Of a stretch of DNA of 64,000 nt, positions 1,346-62,075 are shown one piece after another. The position numbers were made by a program, and so were the translations under genes. This DNA is from an uncultured bacterium (GTDB lineage Bacteria > Babelota > Babeliae > Babelales > Vermiphilaceae). Numbering within the stretch: position 1 is the stretch's first letter; each line of letters starts with the position of its first letter. The notes under the pieces are model-generated. The model did no database searches. It had not been told where the DNA came from and was given only the letters and a program-made list of their open reading frames with translations. The DNA lies in contig OY969561.1 of the NCBI GenBank assembly GCA_963701085.1, positions 160,001-224,000 on the forward strand. The letters are read 5' to 3'.

Positions 1346-2815
1346 TTACTCAGCAATTTTGTGGGCGATAAGATGCATTTTTCCTGCTCCAAGGAATAAA
1401 ATAAGGTCATTTTTGGCGGCAGATCGTTCTATTGCCTGTTTTATTTGCGTGAAATCATCTTCAAATGGGACATATTGAATAATAAAGGGGGGGTTGAGGG
1501 CTGTCAGTTCTTGTACAAACCGTTCGCTGGTGATTGTTGGGATGGGATACTCTCCGGCGGAGTAAATATCGGTAAAAATGAGGGTGTCGATAGCGCTTGT
1601 GGCAAAGGTGGTGAGAAAATCATTCCATAATTTTTGGGTACGAGTGTAGCGGTGTGGCTGAAATACCACGATGAGTTTATTATGTGCTCGTTTACGAGCG
1701 ACCTTCAGTGTATATTCAATTTCTTTTGGATGATGACCATAGTCATCAAAGATTTCAGCGCCTTTGTAGGTGCCATGGAATGAAAATCGTCGCTCAACAC
1801 CACCAAAAGTGGCTAAGCTCTTTGCAATTATTTCAAAAGAGATTTCAAGTTCTTGCGCAAGTGCAATTGCTGCTAATGCATTATAAACGTTATGCAAGCC
1901 GGGCATTGGTAGCATGATAGTGCCAAGCGGGGTGAGATTATTTTTTGTGTGTACGGTAAACAGTGAGTGATCAGCGTTGAGAATGATATCCTGTGCATAA
2001 AAATCTGCGTGCCTGTCCGCCCCTTCGACGGAGCTCAGGATAAACTCCGCTTTAGCGAAGGAGGATTCTATGCCGTATGATATTGTTTTAACATGGTCAA
2101 GGGGCATGAGCGAGCGTATGTTTTCGTCATCAATACATACAATTGCTTTGCCATCAACAGGAAGATTGTTAAGGAATTGTTTAAAACATTGTTTGATATC
2201 ATCTAAGTCAGTGTATGTTTCCAGGTGTTCCAAATCAATATTGGTGATGACTGCAAGCGTTGCATGTAGTTGTAAAAAAGAGCGATCACTTTCATCAGCT
2301 TCAGCGACCAAAAAATCACCTTTGCCCATGCGAGCGTTAGATGAAAGATTTTTTAATTGTCCGCCAATGACAACAGTCGGATCCATTTTTGCTTCAATTA
2401 AGATGTGGGAGATGAGAGAGGTTGTTGTTGTTTTTCCATGCGATCCAGCAATTGCTATGCTATATTTTGTGCGCATAAGTTCCGCGAGCATGCATGCGCG
2501 GGAAATTGTTGGAATGCCACGCGCTTGAGCTTGTGCAATTTCCGCCGTTACTGCCGGAATTGTGGTGGCATACATGGGGATGTAGACAAGGGTATCAATG
2601 GTTGCATCATTACACTCAATTGAGTTGTTGCCTTTATATACCGTGCAATCGAGACTTCTCAGCTGCGCAACGGTATCCTGCTCAGTATCAGGATCACATC
2701 CAGAAATGGTGTAACCACTTTGCTTTAAGATGGTGGCTATACCACTCATTCCTATTCCGCCAATACCAACAAAATGAATGTGTGATTTTTTTGTATACAT
2801 AGAAGTGCTTTGCAT
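1346..2815 (-). CDS. murC: UDP-N-acetylmuramate--L-alanine ligase, with a repeat-derived insertion
   Basis: HIHFVGIGGIGMSG, GSHGKTTT, EADESD, DDYGHHP, FQPHRYTRT. Confidence 0.97.
   Translation of the reverse strand: MQSTSMYTKKSHIHFVGIGGIGMSGIATILKQSGYTISGCDPDTEQDTVAQLRSLDCTVYKGNNSIECNDATIDTLVYIPMYATTIPAVTAEIAQAQARGIPTISRACMLAELMRTKYSIAIAGSHGKTTTTSLISHILIEAKMDPTVVIGGQLKNLSSNARMGKGDFLVAEADESDRSFLQLHATLAVITNIDLEHLETYTDLDDIKQCFKQFLNNLPVDGKAIVCIDDENIRSLMPLDHVKTISYGIESSFAKAEFILSSVEGADRHADFYAQDIILNADHSLFTVHTKNNLTPLGTIMLPMPGLHNVYNALAAIALAQELEISFEIIAKSLATFGGVERRFSFHGTYKGAEIFDDYGHHPKEIEYTLKVARKRAHNKLIVVFQPHRYTRTQKLWNDFLTTFATSAIDTLIFTDIYSAGEYPIPTITSERFVQELTALNPPFIIQYVPFEDDFTQIKQAIERSAAKNDLILFLGAGKMHLIAHKIAE
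2011..2065. repeat. Composite hairpin repeat inserted in frame in murC
   Basis: gcctgtccgc[cccttcgacggagctcaggataaactccgc]tttagcgaaggagga; inner part resembles a palindrome arm, outer part resembles 59624-59653. Confidence 0.75.
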
Positions 2816-6387: not shown

Positions 6388-7791
6388 ATGTTTATGAAAT
6401 CAGATTTTTTTGGTGGCTTAGCGCCACGCACGGAGCAGCTTTCTGTTTATTCGTTACGAAGAAAAGAGCTTGTTGAATCAATTAAATTAGCGTTTCCGCA
6501 AATTTCGCACGGTATGGTTGTGTTGTTTGCAGCCTTTGAACAAGGTAGTGAGCGGTTTAGACAAGATAAAACATTTTTTTATTATACCGGTGTGAATGAG
6601 CCGGGAACGGCATTGGTGATTGATTTGGCGGGAAAATCAACATTGTATATTCCTAATTGTTTTGAGAAACGCGCGCAATGGATGACGTTGCCAGCAGCTT
6701 TGGTTAACCGTGATGCAAAGGCGCTTGGTGTTGATGCGGTTGAATTGCTGGGTGATGAGTGTGAAACATATGAATTAAATCCCTATTTCTCTGAACATGA
6801 ATATGCGCACATGATTGCACGTATGAAAAATGTTATTGCACGCGGCGGGTCACTGTTTTCAACGGCGCCAAATAATGGCCATGAATATGTAAACACTCGT
6901 TTTACGTTTGATCATTTACAAAAATTTATTTCTGACGTACAGAAGTCTATTGTGGATATTTCATCGATTATAGCGAGTAGCAGGCGACGCAAAGATGTTG
7001 GTGAAATAGAACATGTTTATCGTGCGATAGAGATTACTGAGCTTGCACATGAGTCGGCAGTTCAGGCTATTAAGCATGAGGCTTTGGAGGCGGAAGTCCA
7101 GGCTTCTTTAGAGTATATGATGATAGCATCTCATGCGCGACCAGCATTTCCAAGTATTGTAGCCAGTGGTAAAAATGGTACGGTGCTGCATTATAATCAA
7201 AATAGTGGCACGCTCAAAAATGGTGATCTTTTGGTTGTTGATATTGGGGCTGAGTTTAATAATTATTGTGCCGATTTGACGCGCACTTACCCAGTATCAG
7301 GGGCGTTTACCAAACGCCAGAAGGAATTGTACAACATTGTTCTTGAAACTCAAACTTACATTGCATCGCTTGCAAAACCTGGCATCTGGCTTAAAAATAA
7401 AGATAAAGCTGAACAATCTCTTCATCATTTAGCGGTTAAATTTCTAGCCAAGCGTGGCTATGACAAATATTTTCCGCATGGAATTGGACATTTTCTTGGC
7501 CTTGATGTGCATGATGTTGGTGATTATTCTCTCCCTCTTCAAGAAGGAGATGTTATTACGATTGAGCCAGGGATTTATATTGCTGCAGAAAATATTGGAA
7601 TTCGTATTGAAGACAATTACTGGATTACCAAAGAAGGTGCTATTTGTTTGAGTGAGCATCTGCCTAAAGAAGCAGATGATATTGAGGCTGTTGTGCAGCA
7701 AGCTCTCCGTGGTGAAACTGATGATGAAGATGATGACGAGTATGAAGATGATGAAGATTTTGATGACGAAGAAGATGATGTGTTTAATTAA
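6388..7791 (+). CDS. pepP: Xaa-Pro aminopeptidase (M24B) with acidic tail
   Basis: LHYN, DIGAE, ADLTRT, HGIGHFLGLDVHD, TIEPGIY, GIRIED. Confidence 0.9.
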   Translation: MFMKSDFFGGLAPRTEQLSVYSLRRKELVESIKLAFPQISHGMVVLFAAFEQGSERFRQDKTFFYYTGVNEPGTALVIDLAGKSTLYIPNCFEKRAQWMTLPAALVNRDAKALGVDAVELLGDECETYELNPYFSEHEYAHMIARMKNVIARGGSLFSTAPNNGHEYVNTRFTFDHLQKFISDVQKSIVDISSIIASSRRRKDVGEIEHVYRAIEITELAHESAVQAIKHEALEAEVQASLEYMMIASHARPAFPSIVASGKNGTVLHYNQNSGTLKNGDLLVVDIGAEFNNYCADLTRTYPVSGAFTKRQKELYNIVLETQTYIASLAKPGIWLKNKDKAEQSLHHLAVKFLAKRGYDKYFPHGIGHFLGLDVHDVGDYSLPLQEGDVITIEPGIYIAAENIGIRIEDNYWITKEGAICLSEHLPKEADDIEAVVQQALRGETDDEDDDEYEDDEDFDDEEDDVFN

Positions 7792-45173: not shown

Positions 45174-46070
45174 ATGAGTAATGGTGGTAGTTTGTATGTG
45201 TATGTTGTTCTGATTCTTTTTGCTGTGTGTTCTGCTACTGCAAAAGATAGTGAAAAATGGGTTAAAGAAAAAATAGAGCAGGTGCATGTTGGTAATTTTG
45301 CACTGCCTACATCTCAGCAGCCAGGACCATTAGTTGGTTTTGGTCAAAATATTATTGATAAAGGTGATTTGCAGCTGTTTGCGTATGGTGATCAATTAAA
45401 AGGAGCGCGGAAAAGTTTTGCAGAAGTTGCTCCTTCTTTATTGTATGGAATTACTGATAAATTTTCTTTGTTTATAGAGCAATCAGTTGCCGTAAAGTTT
45501 AAAAATGAGCAGTTTACATCGCATGGCTTGGAGGATTTGCTGGTACAACTTGAAGGTCTTATTTATGCACAAGAAACAACCGTAACAGTTAATGAAATTA
45601 CATTAGTTGGTAATATGACTTTTCCCACCGGTTCAGCTACCAAACAACCACCAACTGGTTTTGGTGCGCCAACATTTTTTTTAGGGTTTACGGTGAGTCG
45701 TACTAAACTAGATTGGTATTATTTTAGTGCCATGGGGGGGATAATAACAACATCACATCATAAGACTAAATTTGGTAAAGAATTTTTGTATCAGTTTGGC
45801 GTGAGTAAAAATATAGCATACAAAGCAGATAGATGGCTTTTGAATTGGATGGTTGAACTGGATGGTTTGTATAGGCAGCACAATAGAATACGCGGCATAG
45901 TTGATCGCAGTAGTGGTGGCAATACCATTGTTTTGGGACCTTCATTGTGGTTTTCTACGCAACGCTTTATTTTGCAAGGCGGGATATCGGCTGTTATTGC
46001 GGATCATCCATTTGGTACGCAGACTAAAAATAATTATTTTGCAGCAGCAAATGTTGGGTGGAAATTTTAA
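45174..46070 (+). CDS. Putative outer-membrane beta-barrel/transporter, paralog 2
   Basis: Colinear with paralog 1; ends NVGWKF. Confidence 0.7.
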   Translation: MSNGGSLYVYVVLILFAVCSATAKDSEKWVKEKIEQVHVGNFALPTSQQPGPLVGFGQNIIDKGDLQLFAYGDQLKGARKSFAEVAPSLLYGITDKFSLFIEQSVAVKFKNEQFTSHGLEDLLVQLEGLIYAQETTVTVNEITLVGNMTFPTGSATKQPPTGFGAPTFFLGFTVSRTKLDWYYFSAMGGIITTSHHKTKFGKEFLYQFGVSKNIAYKADRWLLNWMVELDGLYRQHNRIRGIVDRSSGGNTIVLGPSLWFSTQRFILQGGISAVIADHPFGTQTKNNYFAAANVGWKF

Positions 46071-46071
46071 A

Positions 46072-46116
46072 CCCTTCGATACATTTTTGCAGACAAAAAC
46101 ACTCAGGGCGAGCGGA
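46072..46116. repeat. Half-palindrome variant with an internal hairpin, right after a stop codon
   Basis: cccttcgatacatttttgcagacaaaaacactcagggcgagcgga. Confidence 0.8.
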
Positions 46117-46165
46117 AAAAATAAATAACTCACAAACCAAAAAAATATAATGATTTATGCTATAA

Positions 46166-46621
46166 TTATTTTTTCATGAATTGTTTATAGTAAGCCATTT
46201 TGTCTTCTTGAGTATTGTTTTGTAGTGGATATGTTTTCATTTCGCTTTTTTTATCATCCCAACTGTTTTCATTATCCCAATTAATTGGGATTGGACACCA
46301 TTTCTGATAGGCTTCTTTTCTGCCTTTTTGAGTATTATTATACGTTGGAGAAGTGATAATGTAGGTTCTGTGCTTGAAATTGTTTATTGTCGAGAGCCTT
46401 GTGTGCATGCAGAGTATAGAACTGTTAAGGGTGAGTAATGTTACAACATAGTATGATTTACTATAGTTATTTATTTTAATTTTTTTTCTTGCGCTCGTCC
46501 TGAACTTGTTGAAGGATTTCTTCGAGCGCTCGAGGATATCCTTCAACAAGTTCAGGACGAGCGCATTAAGAAATTTAATATTTTTCGACTTAAGAGATAG
46601 CTTCTTATTTTTGTGCTTCAC
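46166..46621 (-). CDS. Hypothetical protein whose N-terminus is read through a palindromic element (start uncertain)
   Basis: Element-derived ALVLNLLKDILERSKKSFNKFRTSA, then a hydrophobic stretch ending SILC-M. Confidence 0.45.
   Translation of the reverse strand: MKHKNKKLSLKSKNIKFLNALVLNLLKDILERSKKSFNKFRTSARKKIKINNYSKSYYVVTLLTLNSSILCMHTRLSTINNFKHRTYIITSPTYNNTQKGRKEAYQKWCPIPINWDNENSWDDKKSEMKTYPLQNNTQEDKMAYYKQFMKK
46491..46564. repeat. 74-bp palindromic element
   Basis: 27-bp perfect inverted arms gcgctcgtcctgaacttgttgaaggat around central tcgagcgctcga. Confidence 0.95.
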
Positions 46622-47524: not shown

Positions 47525-47985
47525 AAAAACCTTCCGTATGGACGCTGTTTGTAGATGGTGCATCGCGCAATAATCCGGGACCTTCTGGTGCCGGTATTTA
47601 TATTGAAAAAGATAATATATTGGAGATTAAAGAAGGTTATTATTTGGGTATAAAGACCAATAATCAGGCTGAATATTTGGCATTGATTTTTGGTCTTTTT
47701 ATTGTGCAAGAACATGTGCATAGCGGTGACACGGTGCGAATTATTTCTGATTCACAACTGCTTGTTCGTCAAGTGATGGGTGTGTATAAAGTTAGACAGC
47801 CACATTTGCAGCCCTTGCATGCGCTTTGTAAAATCATCATGCATAAGTTAGATGCTACTATTAATCATGTTTTGCGTGATGAAAATATGCAAGCAGATGC
47901 AATGGCTAATTATGGTGTTGATCGTAAAACAGTTCCCCCTAAACATTATATTGCATTATTGAAGCAGCATGACATTCTTCTCTAG
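47521..47985 (+). CDS. rnhA: Ribonuclease HI
   Basis: DGASRNNPG, TNNQAEY, DSQL, N..AD.MAN. Confidence 0.92.
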   Translation: MKKPSVWTLFVDGASRNNPGPSGAGIYIEKDNILEIKEGYYLGIKTNNQAEYLALIFGLFIVQEHVHSGDTVRIISDSQLLVRQVMGVYKVRQPHLQPLHALCKIIMHKLDATINHVLRDENMQADAMANYGVDRKTVPPKHYIALLKQHDILL

Positions 47986-49435
47986 ATTAGAACCTATTTT
48001 TAAACTAATTTTTTCCCGCGCTCGTCCTGAGCCTGTCGAAGGATATCCTCGAGCGCTCGAAGAAAACCCTTCAACAAGTTCAGGGCGAGCGCGGGAAGGA
48101 AATTTAGTATTTAGATATAGGATTTTATTTATCTTAATTTTGTTGGGAAACATATCTCTTGATGCCGCTCGCTGGCCATGGATAGTAACGTCTACAACGA
48201 GTCCATTGTCGGCAAAAAAATCTGTGGTGCGCTCTCGTGCAACGCTCAACAAAGCACGAACATCTGATATGTTGCATCATCTATTTCCCGGTGATGTTAT
48301 TTTTCAAGAATGTGTTCAACAAGATTCATTGGATGATATATGCGCACATGCACGCAAAAAACGGCACACTATTGTTCGTGTATTACTTGCTGAATGTGAT
48401 CTTGTTTCATCAGCCCAGTGGCATTTTACATCCCCCGAGGGTTTTACGGTACAGGCAATTAATAATGGTGATGATAAACCCAAAAAAATTCTTAAAGTTT
48501 CCAGTTTTGCTGTTGCGGTAAAATGTGGCTCTTTGTTTTGTAATGGTAAGCGATTAAAGCACGGAGTACGATTACGACCAGTAGGCGGACATGGAGAATT
48601 TAATGGAACTGCTTACGATGGTGATTTCTGTATAATTCAGCATAAAGATAATTTTTTATGTATAAATCAGGTTGAATTGGAAGATTATATTACTGCCGTT
48701 TTACGCACAGAAAGTTGGCCGGGATGGCCACTTGAAGTGAACAAAGTTTTTGCAATTGCTTGCCGTAGTTATGGTGCCTATAAAATACGAGAAGCAAAAC
48801 GCAGTGGACGACCGTATCATGTAAAAAATAGTAATGCGCATCAAACATATCAGGGTAGGCACGATATGCCGATACTTAAGGCTGCGGTTGAGCAAACAAG
48901 GGGTATAGTACTGGGTTTTGGGGGCGCACCTATTTTGGCAATGTTTGACTGCTGTTGTGGGGGGGTTATTCCAGCCCACATTGCTGATTTTGATTTTGCA
49001 AAAGTTCCTTATTTGGCTCGTACGTATGCATGTACACACTGTAAGGAGTCTTCACTTTATGTATGGAACGTATCGTATGAACTGGCAGCTTTTGAAGCAC
49101 TTTTAGCTCATTATAAGCACGAAATTACATGGTTGCATGATATTCATATTGTAAAAAAAGATAAGGCGGGCCTTGTTGCTGAAGTAAAACTCAAAGGGCC
49201 AAAAAAACATACAATTGTCTCCGGCAAGAAGCTCTATTCATTGCTTAAAGAAGTTAAATCCTTTCATTTTGATGTTCAAAAAAAGGCAGGAAAAATAGTT
49301 TTTACTGGTCGTGGATTTGGTCATCATCTTGGTTTATGCCAATGGGGTGCGCGTCAGATGGTCCGCGATGGGTGGGATTATAAGTCTATTCTGCGCTTTT
49401 ATTACCCCGGTGCTTATTTTATGCGTCTTACATAA
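47969..49435 (+). CDS. SpoIID/LytB-domain peptidoglycan hydrolase; N-terminus contains a palindromic element
   Basis: LEDYITAVL..E, HQTYQG, GRGFGHHLGLCQWGA, ILRFYYPG. Confidence 0.9.
   Translation: MTFFSRLEPIFKLIFSRARPEPVEGYPRALEENPSTSSGRAREGNLVFRYRILFILILLGNISLDAARWPWIVTSTTSPLSAKKSVVRSRATLNKARTSDMLHHLFPGDVIFQECVQQDSLDDICAHARKKRHTIVRVLLAECDLVSSAQWHFTSPEGFTVQAINNGDDKPKKILKVSSFAVAVKCGSLFCNGKRLKHGVRLRPVGGHGEFNGTAYDGDFCIIQHKDNFLCINQVELEDYITAVLRTESWPGWPLEVNKVFAIACRSYGAYKIREAKRSGRPYHVKNSNAHQTYQGRHDMPILKAAVEQTRGIVLGFGGAPILAMFDCCCGGVIPAHIADFDFAKVPYLARTYACTHCKESSLYVWNVSYELAAFEALLAHYKHEITWLHDIHIVKKDKAGLVAEVKLKGPKKHTIVSGKKLYSLLKEVKSFHFDVQKKAGKIVFTGRGFGHHLGLCQWGARQMVRDGWDYKSILRFYYPGAYFMRLT
48018..48092. 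repeat. 75-bp palindromic element, in frame in the SpoIID ORF
   Basis: Encodes RARPEPVEGYPRALEENPSTSSGRA; arms extend with ttccc/gggaa. Confidence 0.95.
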
Positions 49436-49532: not shown

Positions 49533-51781
49533 ATGGCTTTTTTTTATGTAATGGTGATGACGTTTGTAATGATTTTACCGTCAGTAAGTTGTGCTGTTGA
49601 ATCAGTAAAAATAGTTCCAACAGGTTTAGAGCGAGTTTTTGCAATGAGCGGGGAAGTTGCTGTTAAACAACAGGAGATGTTAGCAAAAGCTACCGCTGAA
49701 ACTAAAACGATTGTAGATGGCGCAACAAAAAAGATTGATTTTGTTCGCGGTCTGTTATTTGTTGATGTAACAACGCAACAAGAAGCTGCAAAAATAATGA
49801 GAACAATTATTAAGCAGAATTCCATTGCTGCTCAAGCGCAACAGAAATTAAAAAGGTTACGCGAGCGATTAGCACAGGAAAATGAAGCTGATGATGCGCA
49901 GGATAGTTATGTGAGTAGATTGGTATTGGCGGTAAAAGATGTGGGGCATGATTTGGTTGCTCCATTTAGGTATACAAAGAATGAAAAAAATATAGCGCAG
50001 CAGATTATCTTTGGGTTGATGCAGCAACAAGCAAAAATCATGGAAGACTACCAAGCTTTACCGCTTTTTAGCGTTAGTAACAAAACTCAGCTCAGAAAAT
50101 GTTATGAAACAGCCATTGCGCAGCTTGATGATGAAATATATCGGCAGCAGTGTATTACTGGTGAAAAAAAGAGTTTTAAAAAACAGGTGGCTTTGTTAGC
50201 TGGTGGCGCAGCGGTAGCAGCTGCAGCGGCTTTGCTTGCGCATAAATTTTTGCTGCCAGAATTTTTGGGTGCATCAACACCTGAAAATGGGATAGTGATA
50301 AATAATAATAATGAATTAAAAGATGTTGAGCAAAATAAATTTGAGCAAATCAGCGAACTATCTTCTGTTGGATCATCTATCGTTGAAGAAGAAGTTGTTG
50401 TGCAAGATGAACAAACCCGCGCTCGTCCTGAGCCTGTCGAAGGATATCCCCGAGCGCTCGAAGAAAACCCTTCAACAAGTTCAGGGCGAGCGCAGCGAGA
50501 ATTGAACGCAGTGTTTACTACTGAGCCTGTCGAAGTATCAGGGCGAGCGCAGGAAGAAATTAGTTTAGAGATAGATGCTAATACAGAATTAAATTTGGAT
50601 CAGCCAAATGTGGTAGATCAAGCAAAAGAAGAATTAGATGGAACAGAAGTTTCTCAAAAAGATCAAGATTCTCAAGAAATTGTAATACCTAATCAACCTG
50701 TGGAAAAGGGATATTTGGATATTGCTAAGGATACTATCCAGTATTATTTGGGGTTGGGAGATGTGCCTGAGGAGGTAACGGAAAATAAACCATCAGTTAC
50801 GCAAGTAGTGATGGATGAAACCCCAGGGCTTGATGTAGAAAAAACAGCAATTGAAATAGGACAGTGCCCACTGATTTAATTGAAAATGAATCAGTAATTG
50901 GATCTCCCCGCGCTCGTCCTGAGCCTGTCGAAGGATATCCACGAGCGCTCGAAGAAAACCCTTCAACAAGTTCAGGGCGAGCGCAGCGAGAATTGAACGC
51001 AGTGTTTACTACTGAGCCTGTCGAAGTATCAGGGCGAGCGCAGGAAGAAATTAGTTCAGAAGTAGGCCCTCTATTAGTAGACGAACAACCTGACGAAGAT
51101 ATTGTAATGCCTGAAGTAGTTGTACAACAAGAAGAACAACCTGAAAGTCAGCCAGAGCAACGAGAACAAGAAGAGTCTTTAAACGAGGACGCATTTAATT
51201 CAGCAATAGATGCAGACGGGAATCCGATCATACTTATGCCAACTATGCCTGCTGAACAGGATAATAAAGTGGACGATGTGCAACAAGCTGATGTCCCAAG
51301 TATAGCAATGTCTCTTAGGCAAGAGTTTGCCGCGGAGCAGGAAAAGTTAGACAATTTGAAGGCTGATTATGGGACGGGTTGGTGGACGAGTGTTACATTA
51401 GAAGAAAAAGAAGAGCAAGAAAAAAAAGTAGCACAAATAATTGAAAAAATAGTTGAGGAAGATGCTGCTTGGAATTGTGTGGTGAGTCAGCAACAAGATT
51501 TAAGAAATGCAGATATTATCCACAAGGCAGAGCTGTATCGCGTTGAGATGGATAGGTTAGAAGCAGAAGAAAAAATAGCGGAAAAAGAATATAATGCGGC
51601 GGTTGAAGCGCGAGATAAAAAATTAGAAAGTTCGTTCTTTCAAGCAAAGCAATTTTTGGGAATGCTTTTTGACAGAGGGGATTTGGAATATGAAGATTTA
51701 CAGCATAAAGTACAAATATCAGAATCTCGTTTGTGCGGCAAGAAGGCATTAAAAGATTGGCACATCAAAAATAAACCGTAA
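49533..51781 (+). CDS. Large secreted/membrane acidic coiled-coil protein split by an apparent frameshift near 50860; contains two element-derived 49-aa repeats
   Basis: ORFs 49533-50879 and 50864-51781 overlap and share composition and a repeat. Confidence 0.65.
50416..50565. repeat. 150-bp direct repeat copy 1 (75-bp palindrome at 50419-50493 plus tactactgagcctgtcgaagta module and a half arm)
   Basis: One mismatch versus 50907-51056. Confidence 0.95.
50907..51056. repeat. 150-bp direct repeat copy 2 (75-bp palindrome at 50910-50984)
   Basis: One mismatch versus 50416-50565. Confidence 0.95.
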
Positions 51782-51827
51782 AAACATGCATAACTTACTA
51801 TAGTTATTCGCTTCATGTATTTTTCCT

Positions 51828-51901
51828 GCGCTCGCCCTGAACCTGTTGAAGGGTTTCCCCGAGCGCTCGAAGATATCCTTCAACAAGTTCAGGACGAGCG
51901 C
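51828..51901. repeat. 74-bp palindromic element between convergent genes
   Basis: gcgctcgccctgaacctgttgaagg...ccttcaacaagttcaggacgagcgc. Confidence 0.95.
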
Positions 51902-59059: not shown

Positions 59060-59482
59060 TTATTTGTTGTTATCAAAAAATTTCCATTTATGTGCATTTT
59101 CTACTGCTTCTTCTAAGCAATCCATCTCCCATCTGTTATAAGCACCCACGTTTATTAATGCATGAGTTACTTGTTCTTTAGAAATTTTCTTATCCTGAGC
59201 CTTATCAGGGAAATTAGCTTCTTGCAGTAAATAGTCATCAATTATTTCGCAATTATGAGAATCTATTTTTTTACCTTTCACAAAAGCCATCGCTGATTCT
59301 ATCGGTGTTGGATTACAATAGAAATAAATTTGAGATACAACTGTTACATCGTGCGGAGTAGTACTCATTGCATGATATCTAGGATGATACATGCTTAGTC
59401 CCCCGTATTTTTTATTATCCATGGAATTAAGAGAAAAATTGCTTGCGATGGATAGTGCGACGATTATTTGCAATGCTTTCAT
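59060..59482 (-). CDS. Secreted hypothetical protein, paralog A
   Basis: FSLNS-M; Y.GL..YH..Y and L.EAV..A shared with B and C. Confidence 0.75.
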   Translation of the reverse strand: MKALQIIVALSIASNFSLNSMDNKKYGGLSMYHPRYHAMSTTPHDVTVVSQIYFYCNPTPIESAMAFVKGKKIDSHNCEIIDDYLLQEANFPDKAQDKKISKEQVTHALINVGAYNRWEMDCLEEAVENAHKWKFFDNNK

Positions 59483-59564
59483 GAAGTGACTCCTTTATAA
59501 GTGTTAAAAATTTTTATTATTAAGAGCATATCCTTAAAGTCGAAAAATATTAAATTTTTTTTTC

Positions 59565-59704
59565 GCGCTCGTCAGCTACACCCCATCTTCAGTTCCTTGC
59601 GATGGGGACCCCGATTGGAACGACGTGTCCTTCGAAGCCTTGGCGAAGGAGGAAGTGCAAATTGGGGAATAAAGGATATCTTCGAGCGCTCGAAGGTATC
59701 CTTT
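59565..59704. repeat. Nested composite repeat: palindrome remnant > double-hairpin module > 30-bp hairpin
   Basis: gcgctcgtc end; module matching 40506-40570; insert 59624-59653; central aaaggatatcttcgagcgctcgaaggtatccttt. Confidence 0.85.
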
Positions 59705-59723
59705 AATAACATTATTGATAGAT

Positions 59724-60491
59724 TTATTTGTTGTTTTCTTCAGACATGTGACATTTTGAGTTGATATCGATTTTGCGATATAATGCATCTTTATATGTAC
59801 TCAAATCATATCTGCTACGATGTGAATTTATGTGAGAATTTGGGTTATAGAATGCATCTCTATTATTAGTAATAGGCTGACAATCATTTGCATGTTGTAC
59901 AGCTTCTCGTAGAAGTATTAATTCTTGATTATAATTAGGATTACAGAGATTCTTAAACAGCATGCTATAGCGATTGGGTGTAGATAATGTATTTTTCAGA
60001 GCAGTGTCTACTTGTTGTTGGACAGTAGAATCTTGAAGATTACCAGATAAACGAGCTTGCTGTATTTGTGGAATAACAATTTGAAGAAGTGATTTTCGCA
60101 AATTTAAATCTTTTTTTCTAAAAATATCGCTTTGAAGAAGTGATTTTCGCAAATTTAAATCTTTTTTTCTAAAAATATCGCTCGTAGAATTTAATTCGCT
60201 CGTGGTAGCTTCTAGATCTTTGGTATAGAATTTTATTTGTTCTTCTACTGATTCTTGTGGACGTCTATTCAGTAATAAATATGCATTAAGTATGTCACAA
60301 CTAGCATCTTTTTTATTAGATTTACAATATGAATAAATAGTAGATCCGCATGTTAACTCATTTTCAGAGCAGAAAGAATTGTGATATGTAGGATGGTAAA
60401 ATTTCAATCCCACGTATTCTTCATTTTCCATTGAATTAAGAGAAAAACTGCTTGCGATGCATAGTGCAACAATTACGTGTAATGTTTTCAT
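59724..60491 (-). CDS. Secreted hypothetical protein, paralog B, with an internal 17-aa duplication
   Basis: FSLNS-M; ILNAYLLLNRRPQESVE shared with C. Confidence 0.8.
   Translation of the reverse strand: MKTLHVIVALCIASSFSLNSMENEEYVGLKFYHPTYHNSFCSENELTCGSTIYSYCKSNKKDASCDILNAYLLLNRRPQESVEEQIKFYTKDLEATTSELNSTSDIFRKKDLNLRKSLLQSDIFRKKDLNLRKSLLQIVIPQIQQARLSGNLQDSTVQQQVDTALKNTLSTPNRYSMLFKNLCNPNYNQELILLREAVQHANDCQPITNNRDAFYNPNSHINSHRSRYDLSTYKDALYRKIDINSKCHMSEENNK
60081..60182. repeat. Perfect 51-bp tandem duplication
   Basis: Encodes SDIFRKKDLNLRKSLLQ twice. Confidence 0.95.
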
Positions 60492-60523: not shown

Positions 60524-61129
60524 TTATTTGGTGCTATCAAGAAAATCACATTGATTTGCGGATTCTACAGCTTCTTTTAGATAGGCTAGTTCATGCCGAT
60601 AATTATCTGATGAGGAGATATTTTTTAATGCCATACCTACTTGTTCTTGAATACTGCGATCTTGAGGTTTACCAGAAAGATTAGCTTGTTGTATTTGTGG
60701 GATAATACGTTCAAGAAATTTTTGTCGAGTTCCTAATGTGTTTTTTTTAAAAATCTCAATGGTAGAATTTAATTGTTCAGTAGTATTGGTGAGGTCTTTT
60801 TTATAAAATTCTAGCTGTTGTTCTACTGATTCTTGTGGACGTCTGTTAAGCAATAAATAGGCATTAAGTATTCTGCAATTGTAAGGATCTTTTGTATTTT
60901 TTGTCCATGCATCCCTCCATGATGATGTACAATAAGGATAAATATCACTGCCTTTTACAGAGGAATATGCGCTTATATCAATACGAGAGGCATACCGAGA
61001 ATGATACCATTCTAGTCCCGAATAATCTTCATTTTTATTTCTGTTTCTAACGTGCTGCATAGGCTGCATAGAATGAAGAGAAAAACTGTTTGCGATGGAT
61101 AGTGCGGCGATTATTTGCAATGCTTTCAT
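60524..61129 (-). CDS. Secreted hypothetical protein, paralog C
   Basis: AAGGAG SD; MKALQIIAALSIANSFSLHS-M. Confidence 0.8.
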   Translation of the reverse strand: MKALQIIAALSIANSFSLHSMQPMQHVRNRNKNEDYSGLEWYHSRYASRIDISAYSSVKGSDIYPYCTSSWRDAWTKNTKDPYNCRILNAYLLLNRRPQESVEQQLEFYKKDLTNTTEQLNSTIEIFKKNTLGTRQKFLERIIPQIQQANLSGKPQDRSIQEQVGMALKNISSSDNYRHELAYLKEAVESANQCDFLDSTK

Positions 61130-61230
61130 GAAGCGACTCCTTTGTGAGTGGTTGTTAAATAATTGAGCATAGATTATAGATTTTTTGGAATATTGGCAAT
61201 GTTGAAAGTTTATATTTTTTATTGCGCTTA

Positions 61231-61258
61231 ATCCTTCAACAAATTCAGGATGAGCGCG
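61231..61258. repeat. Single arm of the palindromic element overlapping the tatD stop
   Basis: atccttcaacaaattcaggatgagcgcg. Confidence 0.75.
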
Positions 61259-62075
61259 TCGGGGAGAGATCTTTGAGGTTAAATAGGTGTAGTGCATTTT
61301 GTGTTGTTTGTTGAGCAATAATTTCAAAAGATTCGCCCCTTAATTGTGCAATATATTCCGCTATATCTTTTATATACTGAGGATGATTTTGTTTGCCACG
61401 CATTGCTTGTGGTGGTAAAAATGGTGCATCAGTTTCTAAAACAATATTTTTTAAATCAGTTGTGGTAACAACGTTGCGCAATTCATTATTTTTAGGATAG
61501 GTAATGGTTCCGCCAATGCCGAGCATAAAACCCCAATCAGTGACCGTTTTTGCAAAAGCTTGGTCATAAGAAAAACAGTGCATAGCCGTCCGCATAGGAT
61601 TGTTTTTATATTCTTCTAATACGCGTAATGTTTCATCATAGGCATCACGGCTGTGGACGATGAGTGCAAGATCGTTTTCAAGAGCAAGTTCTATTTGAGC
61701 TTTAAACGCATCACGCTGGCGATTGAGATTATAATCAGGATAATGCATATCGATGCCACATTCGCCAATACCAACAATTTTATTGGTTTCTTTTTTTTGC
61801 ACCCATGATTTTAGAAGTTCAAAATCTTCCTGCCAGGTATCGGAATCATTCGGGTGAATGCCAACCGTTGCAAAGACAGAATTAAATGTTTGTGCAAGGA
61901 GAACGCAATTGCCATTTTCAATACTGCGGGTACCAACATTAATAATAATGGAGACTCCTGCTGCGTGAGCTTGGTCGATAATAATGTGTGCTTTTGGTAA
62001 ATCAGATTTTTCGAGTGGAGTATCAAAGCTACTTTTTACCATCATGTTAATGTGGCAATGAGTATCGATTAACAT
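61245..62075 (-). CDS. tatD: TatD-family hydrolase
   Basis: LIDTHCH, GIHP, IGECGID, HSRDA, HCF, ETDAPFL. Confidence 0.95.
   Translation of the reverse strand: MLIDTHCHINMMVKSSFDTPLEKSDLPKAHIIIDQAHAAGVSIIINVGTRSIENGNCVLLAQTFNSVFATVGIHPNDSDTWQEDFELLKSWVQKKETNKIVGIGECGIDMHYPDYNLNRQRDAFKAQIELALENDLALIVHSRDAYDETLRVLEEYKNNPMRTAMHCFSYDQAFAKTVTDWGFMLGIGGTITYPKNNELRNVVTTTDLKNIVLETDAPFLPPQAMRGKQNHPQYIKDIAEYIAQLRGESFEIIAQQTTQNALHLFNLKDLSPTRSS

Follow-up and report, generated by a model that had tools for sequence, protein, structure and literature searches.

Nested hairpin repeats at an intergenic locus of a Babeliales genome: a candidate decaying copy of lineage-specific selfish DNA

The locus at positions 59565-59704 of the window, which is the whole 64-kb stretch of the source genome that was analysed, raises the question of how small hairpin-forming repeats of different families came to lie inside one another between genes. 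Babeliales (Dependentiae) are intracellular parasites of protists and are associated with amoebae. The first-pass annotation of this DNA described three hairpin families at the site, and the sequence is as it described, with three distinct families that are all recurrent. The reading that is somewhat favored is that the locus is a decaying copy of lineage-specific, non-autonomous selfish hairpin repeats of the Babeliales clade, to which a 30-nt hairpin would have been added later in a transposition-like event. The features of the locus are the following:

59565..59573, + strand: terminal box GCGCTCGTC of the left palindrome unit, which also opens the plain palindromes at 46491, 48018, 50419, 50910 and 51828
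59581..59607, + strand: hairpin 1 of the double-hairpin module, with a 7-bp stem (CCCCATC/GATGGGG) and a 13-nt loop
59609..59667, + strand: hairpin 2 of the double-hairpin module, with an 8-bp stem (CCCCGATT/AATTGGGG) that includes one G.T pair and a loop of 43 nt, not 13 nt
59624..59653, - strand: 30-nt hairpin ("family C") in loop 2, flanked by a 2-nt repeat that reads GA on the + strand and TC on the - strand
59671..59704, no strand: center of a ~75-nt palindrome, a 16-bp hairpin with the inner boxes around CGAGCGCTCG
59705..59722, + strand: decayed remnant of the right palindrome arm, without terminal box, identified by eye against plain copies

The locus is an intergenic composite of three layers: the terminal box, a double hairpin that carries the extra 30-nt hairpin, and the palindrome center, where the palindrome sequence picks up again with AAGGATATCTTCGAGCGCTCGAAGG (59672-59696). 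The covariance model R1 scores 66.4 bits against 59581-59667. RNA folding of the locus gives -58.4 kcal/mol (z -4.47, equaled by 0 of 200 shuffles), and folding as DNA gives a z of -3.85. The + strand folds into three hairpins in succession with the 30-mer as a nested hairpin, as the first-pass annotation had proposed for the extra 30 bp at 59624-59653. The two wobble pairs are both G.T on one strand, so that folding is better for the + strand than for the - strand (z -2.30). The right arm at 59705-59722 matches the plain copies at ~12 of 19 positions, with changes towards A/T. An ORF that spans the composite (59501-59764) is spurious.

Related loci were picked by an exact 18-mer of the double hairpin, which yields a small and biased sample. 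Four of the 13 scan loci (L003, L005, L008 and L012) were chance matches and were dropped on reading their flanks; the nine that were kept and the window together comprise 189,718 nt. Further copies of all three repeat families are present in the window and in three related genomes, which all belong to Babeliales. The repeats are the only DNA that the window shares with the nine loci, at ~80-98% identity, and no synteny was found between them. A spread across phyla, as the labels of the MAGs (Babeliales, Pseudomonadota and "uncultured bacterium") would have it, was rejected, as LysS, MurC and PPIase all place with Babeliales. The LysS of the "Pseudomonadota"-labelled MAG has Babeliales as its nearest named relatives and is 88% identical to a further LysS, MurC relatives at 91-68% identity carry the name Candidatus Babeliales, and the PPIases of L001 and L009 are 84% identical. 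Each of the two loci has a double-hairpin unit downstream of this orthologous PPIase; the two units face opposite ways and have different neighbors, and the comparison of the two sites yielded no clean element boundaries.

The basic unit of the outer layer is 39 nt long and consists, in this order, of GCGCTCG as the terminal box, a variable "slot", GAAGGAT as the inner box, and CGAGCGC. This unit occurs singly (L010 at 6590 and 9133, L002 at 12169, L011 at 5662, and the window at 61230), and two units joined head to head make up the ~75-nt palindrome (window 46490, 48018, 50419, 50910 and 51827). The single unit forms a hairpin with a 7-bp stem and a 25-nt loop, and the slot is the loop of that hairpin. 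The slot is filled by 8-12 nt in plain copies, by a "D11" insert, by the 57-nt double hairpin, or by the 30-nt hairpin. The palindromes are flanked by inverted and not by direct repeats. The ORFs at 46166 and 40528 begin within repeats. The other copies in the window are as follows:

2015..2065, - strand: in-frame murC insert of 51 nt, SSFAKAEFILSSVEGAD, with family-C ends and a palindrome-arm-like segment in the loop
40415..40471, + strand: "D11" variant of the arm, immediately past the pgm stop codon, in which other slot content lies between the inner and the terminal box
40495..40575, + strand: second double-hairpin copy, inside a degenerate arm, preceded by a CCGCTCGT box and followed by AAAGGAT; covariance model score 88 bits
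46070..46117, + strand: second D11 variant of the arm, immediately past a stop codon
46490..46566, no strand: plain full palindrome, an inverted dimer of the 39-nt unit, intergenic
48018..48092, + strand: full palindrome that is read in frame as RARPEPVEGYPRALEENPSTSSGRA close to the N-terminus of a SpoIID-domain protein (ORF at 47969)
50419..50566, + strand: full palindrome with an additional half unit, in frame within ORF 49533-50879
50910..51056, + strand: 97%-identical duplicate of 50419..50566, in frame in ORF 50864-51781
51827..51901, no strand: plain full palindrome between convergent genes
61230..61257, - strand: single-unit remnant at the 3' end of a TatD-family gene

The second double hairpin, which had been placed near 40506-40570, was found at 40507-40563 directly after the CCGCTCGT box. 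The module has a constant geometry of 57 nt, and L009b shows a single compensatory change in a stem. Of 13 measured double hairpins, 11 have a second loop of 13 nt and one has a loop of 12 nt, and the length of 43 nt (13+30) is found only at 59609-59667. A CGCTCG-type box lies directly 5' of the double hairpin in 12 of 15 copies, which come from four genomes, and an AAAGG(A/G)T-type box lies directly 3' in 14 of 15. In plain copies such as 46490-46566, the place of the double hairpin is taken by CTGAACTTGTTG, ~12 nt of arm. Because the same box precedes 12 of the 15 copies and ~12 nt of arm is replaced, the double hairpin at 59581-59667 is probably an inherited composite with the palindrome unit and not a fresh insertion. 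The unit and the double hairpin form a conserved composite architecture that spreads as one unit. The first-pass annotation had the left arm interrupted by the double hairpin and then resumed, which is correct for the layout but not as a pure insertion, and its two double-hairpin sites at a "cgctcgt end" are not independent events, given the recurrence of that box. No length rule modulo 3, which it had suggested as a check, holds for the double-hairpin units (90, 93, 94, 94, 94 and 125 nt, where the plain unit has 39 nt). The orientation of 14 double-hairpin copies relative to GC skew was unbiased (8 vs 6); the sample is small and made up of composites and not of fresh insertions.

The innermost layer has a different history. 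The 30-mer is found inside the double-hairpin loop in only 1 of 13 measured copies, and no second near-exact copy is present within the 64-kb window. A Hamming scan with its 24-nt core gave five matches at six or fewer mismatches in the 189,718 nt of window and related loci, where 0.02 are expected from 50 shuffles. A free copy is located at L007:13700, in frame after a signal peptide. In L006 an exact 30-nt copy is nested within another copy of the 30-mer, and palindrome arms contain copies as well, in L013 (FtsK) and at two places in L009, where the 30-mer and half-unit composite is duplicated 1 kb apart. The free 30-mer and the single 39-nt units show that these two modules also occur alone; independent occurrence had been set beforehand as a test. 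Six of the seven DNA-level sites of the 30-nt family involve another module, and the palindrome, double-hairpin and D11 repeats make up 1.33% of the 189,718 nt. Nesting of the modules is thus far above chance, but the double-hairpin sites do not count as independent cases. Every nesting point is a loop or an arm slot.

The junctions of the 30-mer are less uniform than its length. The events in the window and in L006 are both at CT^TCG, in the same orientation and with a TC repeat; the junction repeat in L007 is CAT, 3 nt, and the copy-in-copy event in L013 is at a position other than that of the CT^TCG events. This junction evidence consists of two to three events, and the "empty site" of L006 is deduced from other copies. 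Because the position differs in L013 and the repeat is 3 nt and not 2 nt in L007, a fixed target duplication is not established. The quantum of 30 nt recurs in the window loop, in the L006 copy-in-copy and as 10-residue inserts in PheT, and the constant added length of 30 nt or 10 residues in at least four to five contexts argues for defined element ends. Sequence comparison indicates that the 30-nt hairpin behaves as a separate mobile module.

Copies that are translated within conserved genes allow presence and absence to be compared among close orthologues. MurC inserts are found in 6 of 120 representatives at three sites. The MurC of the window has a 17-residue insert that is window-specific; a 94%-identical sister is without it, and in an alignment with solved MurC structures the homologues are gapped at this position. 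The ends of the insert match the 30-mer, and over 18-19 nt in its middle it differs from a palindrome arm by one indel and one mismatch. The first-pass annotation had described this order, an arm inside the 30-bp family, and was right in substance; its statement that both clear inserts are 30 nt fails, as the murC insert is 51 nt. In P0062 the MurC insert is the whole composite translated in frame (E 2e-11 vs L011). P0038 has the same insert at the same site, and slot content alone differs, at ~35 nt vs 65 nt; the two proteins fall within one 6-row MurC clade (SH-aLRT 94, in a quick tree search with SH-aLRT support only). PheT carries module-derived peptides in 11 of 79 representatives. Read on the - strand, the window 30-mer gives LLRQGFEGH, which matches the 10-residue PheT inserts ALLRQGFEGQ (P0257 and P0264) and TLFRQGSKGQ (P0260). 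At the place where P0258 has only an arm, P0275 has the arm and 10 further residues. Related elements are also in frame in FtsK (L013) and in two unnamed ORFs. A search with the 56-residue palindrome peptide against 1.84 billion cluster representatives, clustered at 50% identity, which may hide in-frame inserts, gave 10 matches at E<=1e-3, a low number that counts against the favored reading. Two of these matches are proteins from the window itself; two others, P0130 and P0131, resemble repeat proteins of no relation and were left out as carriers. For the composite in L004 a location within SufD was not supported, since stops interrupt the frame upstream.

On the favored reading, the outer two layers, unit and double hairpin, would be inherited as a composite that multiplies as a whole, and occasional exchange of cassettes between copies with common flanking boxes would remodel it. 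The innermost 30-nt hairpin would be a separate element with defined ends that arrived later in the single-stranded loop of hairpin 2. A putative trans-acting enzyme may have inserted the hairpin into exposed loop DNA in a transposition-like manner, leaving a 2-3-nt junction repeat. Landing places would be hairpin loops, the first tens of bases past stop codons, and putative variable surface loops of proteins, where the element lengths would preserve the reading frame. The elements would persist as selfish DNA because such landing sites tolerate them.

An account without dedicated mobility would have recombination, gene conversion and replication template-switching act between copies that share boxes (GCGCTCG, CTTCG/CGAAG and AAGGAT), with hairpins stalling replication and therefore attracting templated insertions. 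This account is unlikely, though several observations are of the kind it predicts: arm sequence is replaced and not interrupted by the double hairpin, the P0038 and P0062 inserts are identical except for the slot, the junctions have 2-3 nt of microhomology, the two clean 30-mer events are at CTTCG, a motif present in the 30-mer itself, and the L009 composite is duplicated nearby. It is opposed by the constant added length of 30 nt or 10 residues in the window, L006, L007, PheT (P0257, P0264 and P0260) and P0275 vs P0258, and by new insertions at coding sites without repeat homology, namely the window-specific MurC site, the free PheT site and the signal-peptide protein of L007.

Searches for an enzyme bear on the model of the first-pass annotation, in which each layer was inserted independently by one shared structure-guided single-strand enzyme (HUH/RAYT-like or GIY-YIG) aimed at the stem-loops of the other families. 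No RAYT or GIY-YIG protein was found in 108 ORFs of the nine related loci (Pfam) or in the 55 window ORFs (Pfam or NCBIfam). The transposases in ~190 kb are one IS200/IS605 TnpA in L009 and one IS5. As IS200 the L009 Y1 transposase reaches 147.6 bits, but as RAYT it reaches 29.2 bits, below the cut-off of 80, and the IS200 end hairpins in L009 are unrelated to the repeats. The presence of an IS200-family HUH transposase in one related genome would fit such an enzyme, as would the location of all nesting points in loops or in the slot of the single-unit hairpin, the absence of a long target duplication, and the G.T wobbles on one strand with the better folding of the + strand (z -4.47 vs -2.30). 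The model is nevertheless quite unlikely, since the junction of the double hairpin is shared by 12 of 15 copies from four genomes and sequence is replaced, so that the module is probably inherited here; the only HUH enzyme found in the ~190 kb is no RAYT and has unrelated end hairpins; orientation is unbiased relative to GC skew; and survival in loops only could be mere tolerance. A related proposal is an ecosystem of at least three mini-hairpin mobile elements (the 30-nt hairpin, the 57-nt double hairpin and the 39/75-nt palindrome), which a hairpin- or single-strand-guided enzyme or an RNA-mediated route would integrate into one another's exposed loops and CTTCG-type sites, with the 30-nt element, exactly ten codons long, as a dedicated in-frame colonizer of essential genes. 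It is held to be improbable; if it is true, the 30-nt element would be among the smallest bacterial mobile elements with defined ends known to us.

Alternatively, the modules could be functional structured elements, such as terminators, mRNA stabilizers or protein-binding sites, that are under selection, with nesting building larger regulatory structures. Their location points in this direction, as five of the six intergenic copies in the window start within ~45 nt past a stop codon, free hairpin-2-like single hairpins are intergenic and adjoin ORF ends or starts, and at the place of an ordinary terminator hairpin in L009, L001 has two D11 copies as an inverted pair with a T-run behind them. 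Additionally, the repeats are ~90% identical across genomes whose MurC is only 74% identical, and this high identity could stem from functional selection and not from spread as selfish DNA. However, MurC, PheT, FtsK and further ORFs contain the same sequences in frame, and a terminator inside a gene would do harm; the repeats are present or absent among close relatives, and they decay, as in the right arm at 59705-59722. A terminator scan gave one weak match (- strand, 59695-59680) against 0.5 expected, and its tail is not a clean T-run. Rfam yielded no family for the repeats: the whole window at the gathering threshold gave tRNA-Met only, and the region 59300-59900, searched at E<=10, matched only two models of plant microRNAs, both below threshold (18 and 15 bits vs a cut-off of 100). 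Plasmid and phage searches gave no match to the repeats. A functional role is considered very unlikely, and the favored reading of selfish repeats would leave them without a cellular function.

REP, REPIN and BIME elements of Proteobacteria are extragenic, near-complete palindromes that lie just after genes and are associated with RAYT transposases. The Babeliales repeats resemble them in their mosaic build, their location just after genes, and a short hairpin unit that is found both singly and as inverted dimers; they differ in that no RAYT was found in ~190 kb, in the 7-bp stem and 25-nt loop of the unit, and in having copies in frame in genes too. One source describes Rickettsia palindromic elements (RPEs) as short non-autonomous palindromic repeats of several families in an obligate intracellular bacterium, with many copies in frame in unrelated housekeeping genes, where they encode conserved peptides, and with no known transposase (PMC10969869). 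The present repeats are similar by kind and presumably unrelated in sequence: they are palindromic and non-autonomous, fall into several families, and have in-frame copies in unrelated conserved genes that are absent from close orthologues. RPEs are ~150 bp long, whereas the Babeliales modules are 30, 39 and 57 nt, mosaic and repeatedly nested, and belong to a different phylum.

Mitochondrial GC clusters (yeast GC42) and repetitive hairpin-forming elements of sponges are hairpins of 30-60 nt, with an AG target repeat for GC42, double or triple hairpins formed by combination, and occasional insertion in genes (PMC4478555, PMC2800124). The size, the 2-nt target repeat, the combined hairpins and the insertion in genes are all shared; the Babeliales repeats, in contrast to these organelle elements, are on a bacterial chromosome, have no sequence relation to them and frequently colonize protein genes in frame. 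Double-hairpin elements are reportedly also the subject of a paper on Allomyces. Among bacterial MITEs (Correia, ERIC and Coxiella QMITE1), some copies are intragenic and encode peptides, according to the RPE source (PMC10969869). Likewise, the present elements are non-autonomous, with terminal inverted boxes, a variable interior and some intragenic peptide-encoding copies; unlike MITEs, they are 30-95 nt long and showed no consistent target-site duplication in the three events examined, and no parent insertion sequence with ends matching the inverted terminal boxes was found in the ~190-kb sample (IS200 and IS5 checked). Most MITEs are longer than 30-95 nt. IS200/IS605 elements and their miniature derivatives share hairpin ends and insertion without long duplications, single-strand chemistry is that of IS200, and L009 contains a member of the family. 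Transposition of the IS200 type, through single strands, usually gives a strand bias, whereas no bias (8 vs 6) was found here, and the IS200 end hairpins are unrelated to the repeats. The repeats are read as a variant of selfish hairpin DNA of the RPE, REP-BIME and mitochondrial GC-cluster-like type. No account of them was found in the freely accessible Dependentiae/Babeliales/TM6/Vermiphilus literature, and the words palindrom-, hairpin, MITE and inverted repeat are all absent from the Babela and Chromulinavorax genome papers.

To our knowledge, the biology of the Dependentiae (TM6) has hardly been described. The repeats inflate and fragment gene calls and place inserts of 10-75 residues in conserved proteins that serve as phylogenetic markers. 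The system is unusually small and modular, and presence and absence among close metagenomic relatives can order events (arm before arm plus 30-mer; plain vs double-hairpin slot). The movement and nesting of hairpin elements that lack a transposase is thereby tractable with existing genome data. Selfish palindromic elements within essential genes would here have a second case, in a lineage far from Rickettsia.

The repeat at 59565-59722 features three hairpin families set one inside another. The first-pass annotation had described 59565-59704 as a palindrome interrupted in its left arm by a double hairpin, which carries a third hairpin of 30 nt in its second loop, and a reading of positions 59400-59900 confirmed this anatomy. 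The parts are as follows:

59565-59573: terminal box GCGCTCGTC, followed by a 7-nt linker
59581-59667: double hairpin, hairpins 1 and 2 separated by one A
Hairpin 1: 7-bp stem CCCCATC/GATGGGG, 13-nt loop
Hairpin 2: 8-bp stem CCCCGATT/AATTGGGG with one G.T pair
59624-59653: additional 30 nt in loop 2, with its own 7-bp hairpin
59671-59704: palindrome centre, AAGGATATCTTCGAGCGCTCGAAGG and its mirror
Up to about 59722: right-arm remnant, A/T-decayed

Folding of the + strand gives just these hairpins, with -58.4 kcal/mol and a z of -4.47 as RNA (0 of 200 shuffles as good) and a z of -3.85 as DNA, and the - strand folds more weakly (z -2.30). The repeat lies between two - strand genes, beginning 20 nt past the stop of ORF 59724-60491 and stopping about 80 nt short of the start of ORF 59060-59482. 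These are the first two of three tandem - strand ORFs (the third at 60524-61327) that have in common a 114-nt stretch near their starts with 70-81% identity (family D4), and a search of the three for known domains found none. A + strand ORF called over the repeat (59501-59764) was rejected as a gene and is a repeat artefact.

Related copies were located by a genome scan with an 18-mer across the junction of the double hairpin's two hairpins, which gave 13 loci (L001-L013), of which 9 were judged by their flanks to be true copies and 4 chance matches. The DNA examined amounts to 64 kb from the source genome plus about 126 kb from relatives; as these relatives were chosen through exact identity to an 18-mer of the double hairpin, stem conservation is inflated. 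Evidence at the protein level consists of cluster representatives (P handles) without DNA. Between the window and the nine true loci only the repeats are alignable as DNA, at about 80-98% identity. Three MAGs, with the labels Babeliales, "Pseudomonadota" and "uncultured bacterium", supply the nine true loci. Of these labels, "Pseudomonadota" is not supported: the nearest named relatives of that MAG's LysS, which is 88% identical to another LysS of the comparison, are Babeliales. A PPIase is 84% identical between the Babeliales MAG and the unlabelled chromosome, and the relatives of the window MurC at 91-68% identity are named Candidatus Babeliales bacterium by their sources. Because the LysS, MurC and PPIase comparisons place the carriers with Babeliales, the repeats belong to a single clade, without spread across phyla. 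At about 750 residues, several close LysS relatives (e.g. P0158, P0169, P0174) contain an additional B3_4 domain (PF03483), suggesting that some members of the clade have a LysS fusion.

The window encodes ordinary bacterial housekeeping genes together with ankyrin and F-box proteins. Four tandem paralogous genes at 35081-38845 (about 305-327 residues, about 915-950 nt apart, with stretches up to 92% identical) have no Pfam or NCBIfam match, and an M24 aminopeptidase gene ends in an Asp/Glu-rich, 9-nt periodic tail (7720-7788). In 10 of 10 sequences (window and nine true loci) the deposited strand has a positive GC skew (0.07 to 0.18); contig orientation should be arbitrary.

The building block of the palindrome, seen in related loci, is a 39-nt unit, GCGCTCG + 25 nt + CGAGCGC, in which a variable slot separates the terminal box from an inner box GAAGGAT. 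Single units occur in either orientation (L010:6590, L010:9133, L002:12169, L011:5662), and the palindrome of about 75 nt is two units head-to-head with the central GCGC in common. The window contains:

46490, 48018, 50419, 50910 and 51827: five full palindromes of about 75 nt
59565: interrupted palindrome
61230: palindrome remnant
40415-40471 and 46070-46117: sister variant D11, with different, longer slot content and CCGCTCG-type ends

In three window ORFs the palindrome is translated, each time in the same frame, as RARPEPVEGYPRALEENPSTSSGRA, two of these copies being a 97% duplicate. A 159-nt block of palindrome and half unit, 97% identical at 50416-50574 and 50907-51065, lies in the overlapping ORFs 49533-50879 and 50864-51781, which may be a single gene broken by a frameshift. 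The 145-residue protein P0126 consists of four tandem half units with a period of 19 residues and then a 30-mer-like peptide, RSLGEG; this ORF, over a repeat cluster of another genome, is probably spurious.

A covariance model built from 12 double hairpins and run on 189,718 nt (window and true loci) found 13 strong full copies, both window copies among them, and two diverged ones (L011:5742 and L007:385). The model also found four free-standing single hairpins resembling hairpin 2, which are intergenic and adjoin ORF ends or starts (L006:1150, L009:6882, L002:8198, L009:17078). The geometry of the double hairpin is fixed at 7+13+7, 1, 8+13+8; the copy L009b features a compensatory change in stem 2, and the two wobble pairs are both G.T and on the same strand. 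A CGCTCG-type box stands directly upstream in 12 of the 15 full copies, with a decayed box in a thirteenth, and an AAAGG(A/G)T-type inner box stands downstream in 14; L007:385 has neither. The module takes the place of about 12 nt of palindrome arm, so that the arm is not merely split. Two architectures are found, namely a GCGCTCG unit or dimer around the double hairpin (window 59565, L001, L004, L007, L009b, L010, L013) and a D11-type pair with the double hairpin in its left arm (L002, L006 twice, L011 and partly window 40495). With this box context, arm replacement and the two architectures, the interrupted palindrome is a conserved composite, multiplied as such, and the two window sites do not represent independent hits. 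The ORF called for nfo (endonuclease IV; 40528-41430) starts inside a double hairpin, and since family matches begin only at residue 27-31, translation probably begins at an ATG near 40604-40606.

Only one of the 13 measured double hairpins, the window copy at 59581-59667, carries the 30-nt module (59624-59653) in a loop. A Hamming scan of 189,718 nt with its 24-nt core gave 5 matches at ≤6 mismatches against 0.02 expected, motif searches added two copies with indels, and a search for a second near-exact copy in the window found none. The seven DNA-level sites are:

Window, loop 2 of the double hairpin
Window, murC insert
L013:7316-7408: copy within copy in the slot of a palindrome arm, whole in frame in FtsK
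L006:14021-14090: exact 30-nt copy within another copy, intergenic
L007:13700: free copy downstream of a signal peptide, in frame
L009:8875 and L009:9885: the same composite of arm, 30-mer and half unit, one in frame in PheT and one intergenic

Nesting is real and recurrent: another module is involved at 6 of the 7 sites, against a coverage of just 1.33% of sequence by the other repeat families, and the nesting points are always in loops or slots. The window insertion can be read as 28 nt and a repeated GA (TC on the - strand), the loop site on that strand being CACT^TC^GTT. In L006, the copy-in-copy features the same orientation and TC repeat at the target GGCT^TC^GTA, the free L007 copy has CAT on both flanks, and the L013 copy-in-copy lies elsewhere in its loop. 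These junctions hint at defined ends and a CTTCG-type target, from two or three events read against deduced empty sites.

Protein comparisons bear on mobility. The window MurC features a 17-residue insert (nt 2015-2065) that is missing from its 94%-identical sister P0002 and falls in a gap of solved MurC structures. As the earlier annotation had proposed for murC, the middle of the insert matches a palindrome arm and its ends match the 30-mer, with SSFAKA read from both in the same frame. Internal inserts of at least 5 residues occur in 6 of 120 MurC representatives, at 3 sites. At one of these, a D11 pair is present in P0038, the same pair with a double hairpin in the left slot in P0062, one arm in P0021 and a 30-mer-type piece in P0022; a quick tree unites P0038, P0062, P0022 and three proteins lacking an insert in a single 6-row clade (SH-aLRT 94). 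In PheT, module-derived peptides occur in 11 of 79 representatives at six or more sites. Exact 10-residue inserts (ALLRQGFEGQ in P0257 and P0264, TLFRQGSKGQ in P0260) match the - strand reading of the window 30-mer, LLRQGFEGH. One place holds a minimal arm, PSTSAGRA (P0258), versus the arm with 10 residues, PSTGS-LLRQGYEGHA-GRAG (P0275), and SFDELRTSG in P0276 compares with that arm plus 19 residues in the PheT of L009 itself. These orthologue comparisons in MurC and PheT point to mobility of the modules; a whole-library peptide search gave only 10 matches. The MurC relatives P0020 and P0022 also feature a 24-residue insert between repeated KTISY motifs (IKTISY on both sides in P0020), which may represent a further, fourth type of module, with a long duplication of its target; the MGTP it contains could be an other-frame reading of the double hairpin's GGGGACCCC core.

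Pfam searches of 108 ORFs from the nine true loci identified one IS200/IS605 TnpA and one IS5 transposase, and Pfam or NCBIfam scans of 55 window ORFs found no transposase. The TnpA gene is complete-looking (L009:1498-1923, side hairpins at 1429-1450 and 1944-1965); its assignment as a RAYT was rejected (29 bits against a cut-off of 80, versus 147.6 bits as standard IS200), and comparison of the IS200 end hairpins with the repeat families revealed no relation. Rfam, plasmid and phage searches gave no match for the repeats, and double-hairpin copies were oriented without bias with respect to GC skew (8 vs 6). A literature search for such repeats in Dependentiae found nothing, and the words palindrom-, hairpin, MITE and inverted repeat are absent from the Babela and Chromulinavorax genome papers.

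REP/REPIN/BIME sequences occur as units, inverted dimers and mosaics, a likeness in behaviour to the present repeats. The same kind of likeness applies to Rickettsia palindromic elements, described as in-frame, in several families and without transposase (PMC10969869), and to mitochondrial GC clusters/hairpin elements, described as 30-60-nt hairpins with a 2-nt target repeat, merger and shuffling (PMC4478555, PMC2800124). These three are the closest systems in behaviour, as opposed to established membership by sequence or by enzyme. The Babela genome paper describes one IS4 transposase.

A cellular role, for example in termination downstream of genes, may apply to intergenic copies and cannot account for the in-frame ones. 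Nesting in loops and slots may arise because exposed single strands are targeted, or simply because copies survive where they leave hairpins and reading frames intact. Cassette exchange via recombination between copies is the best account of the slot swaps, and the constancy of the added length at 30 nt speaks for an element whose ends are defined. The outer two layers at 59565-59722 are read as an inherited composite, and the inner 30-mer as a separately mobile module of defined length that was probably a later addition to this copy.
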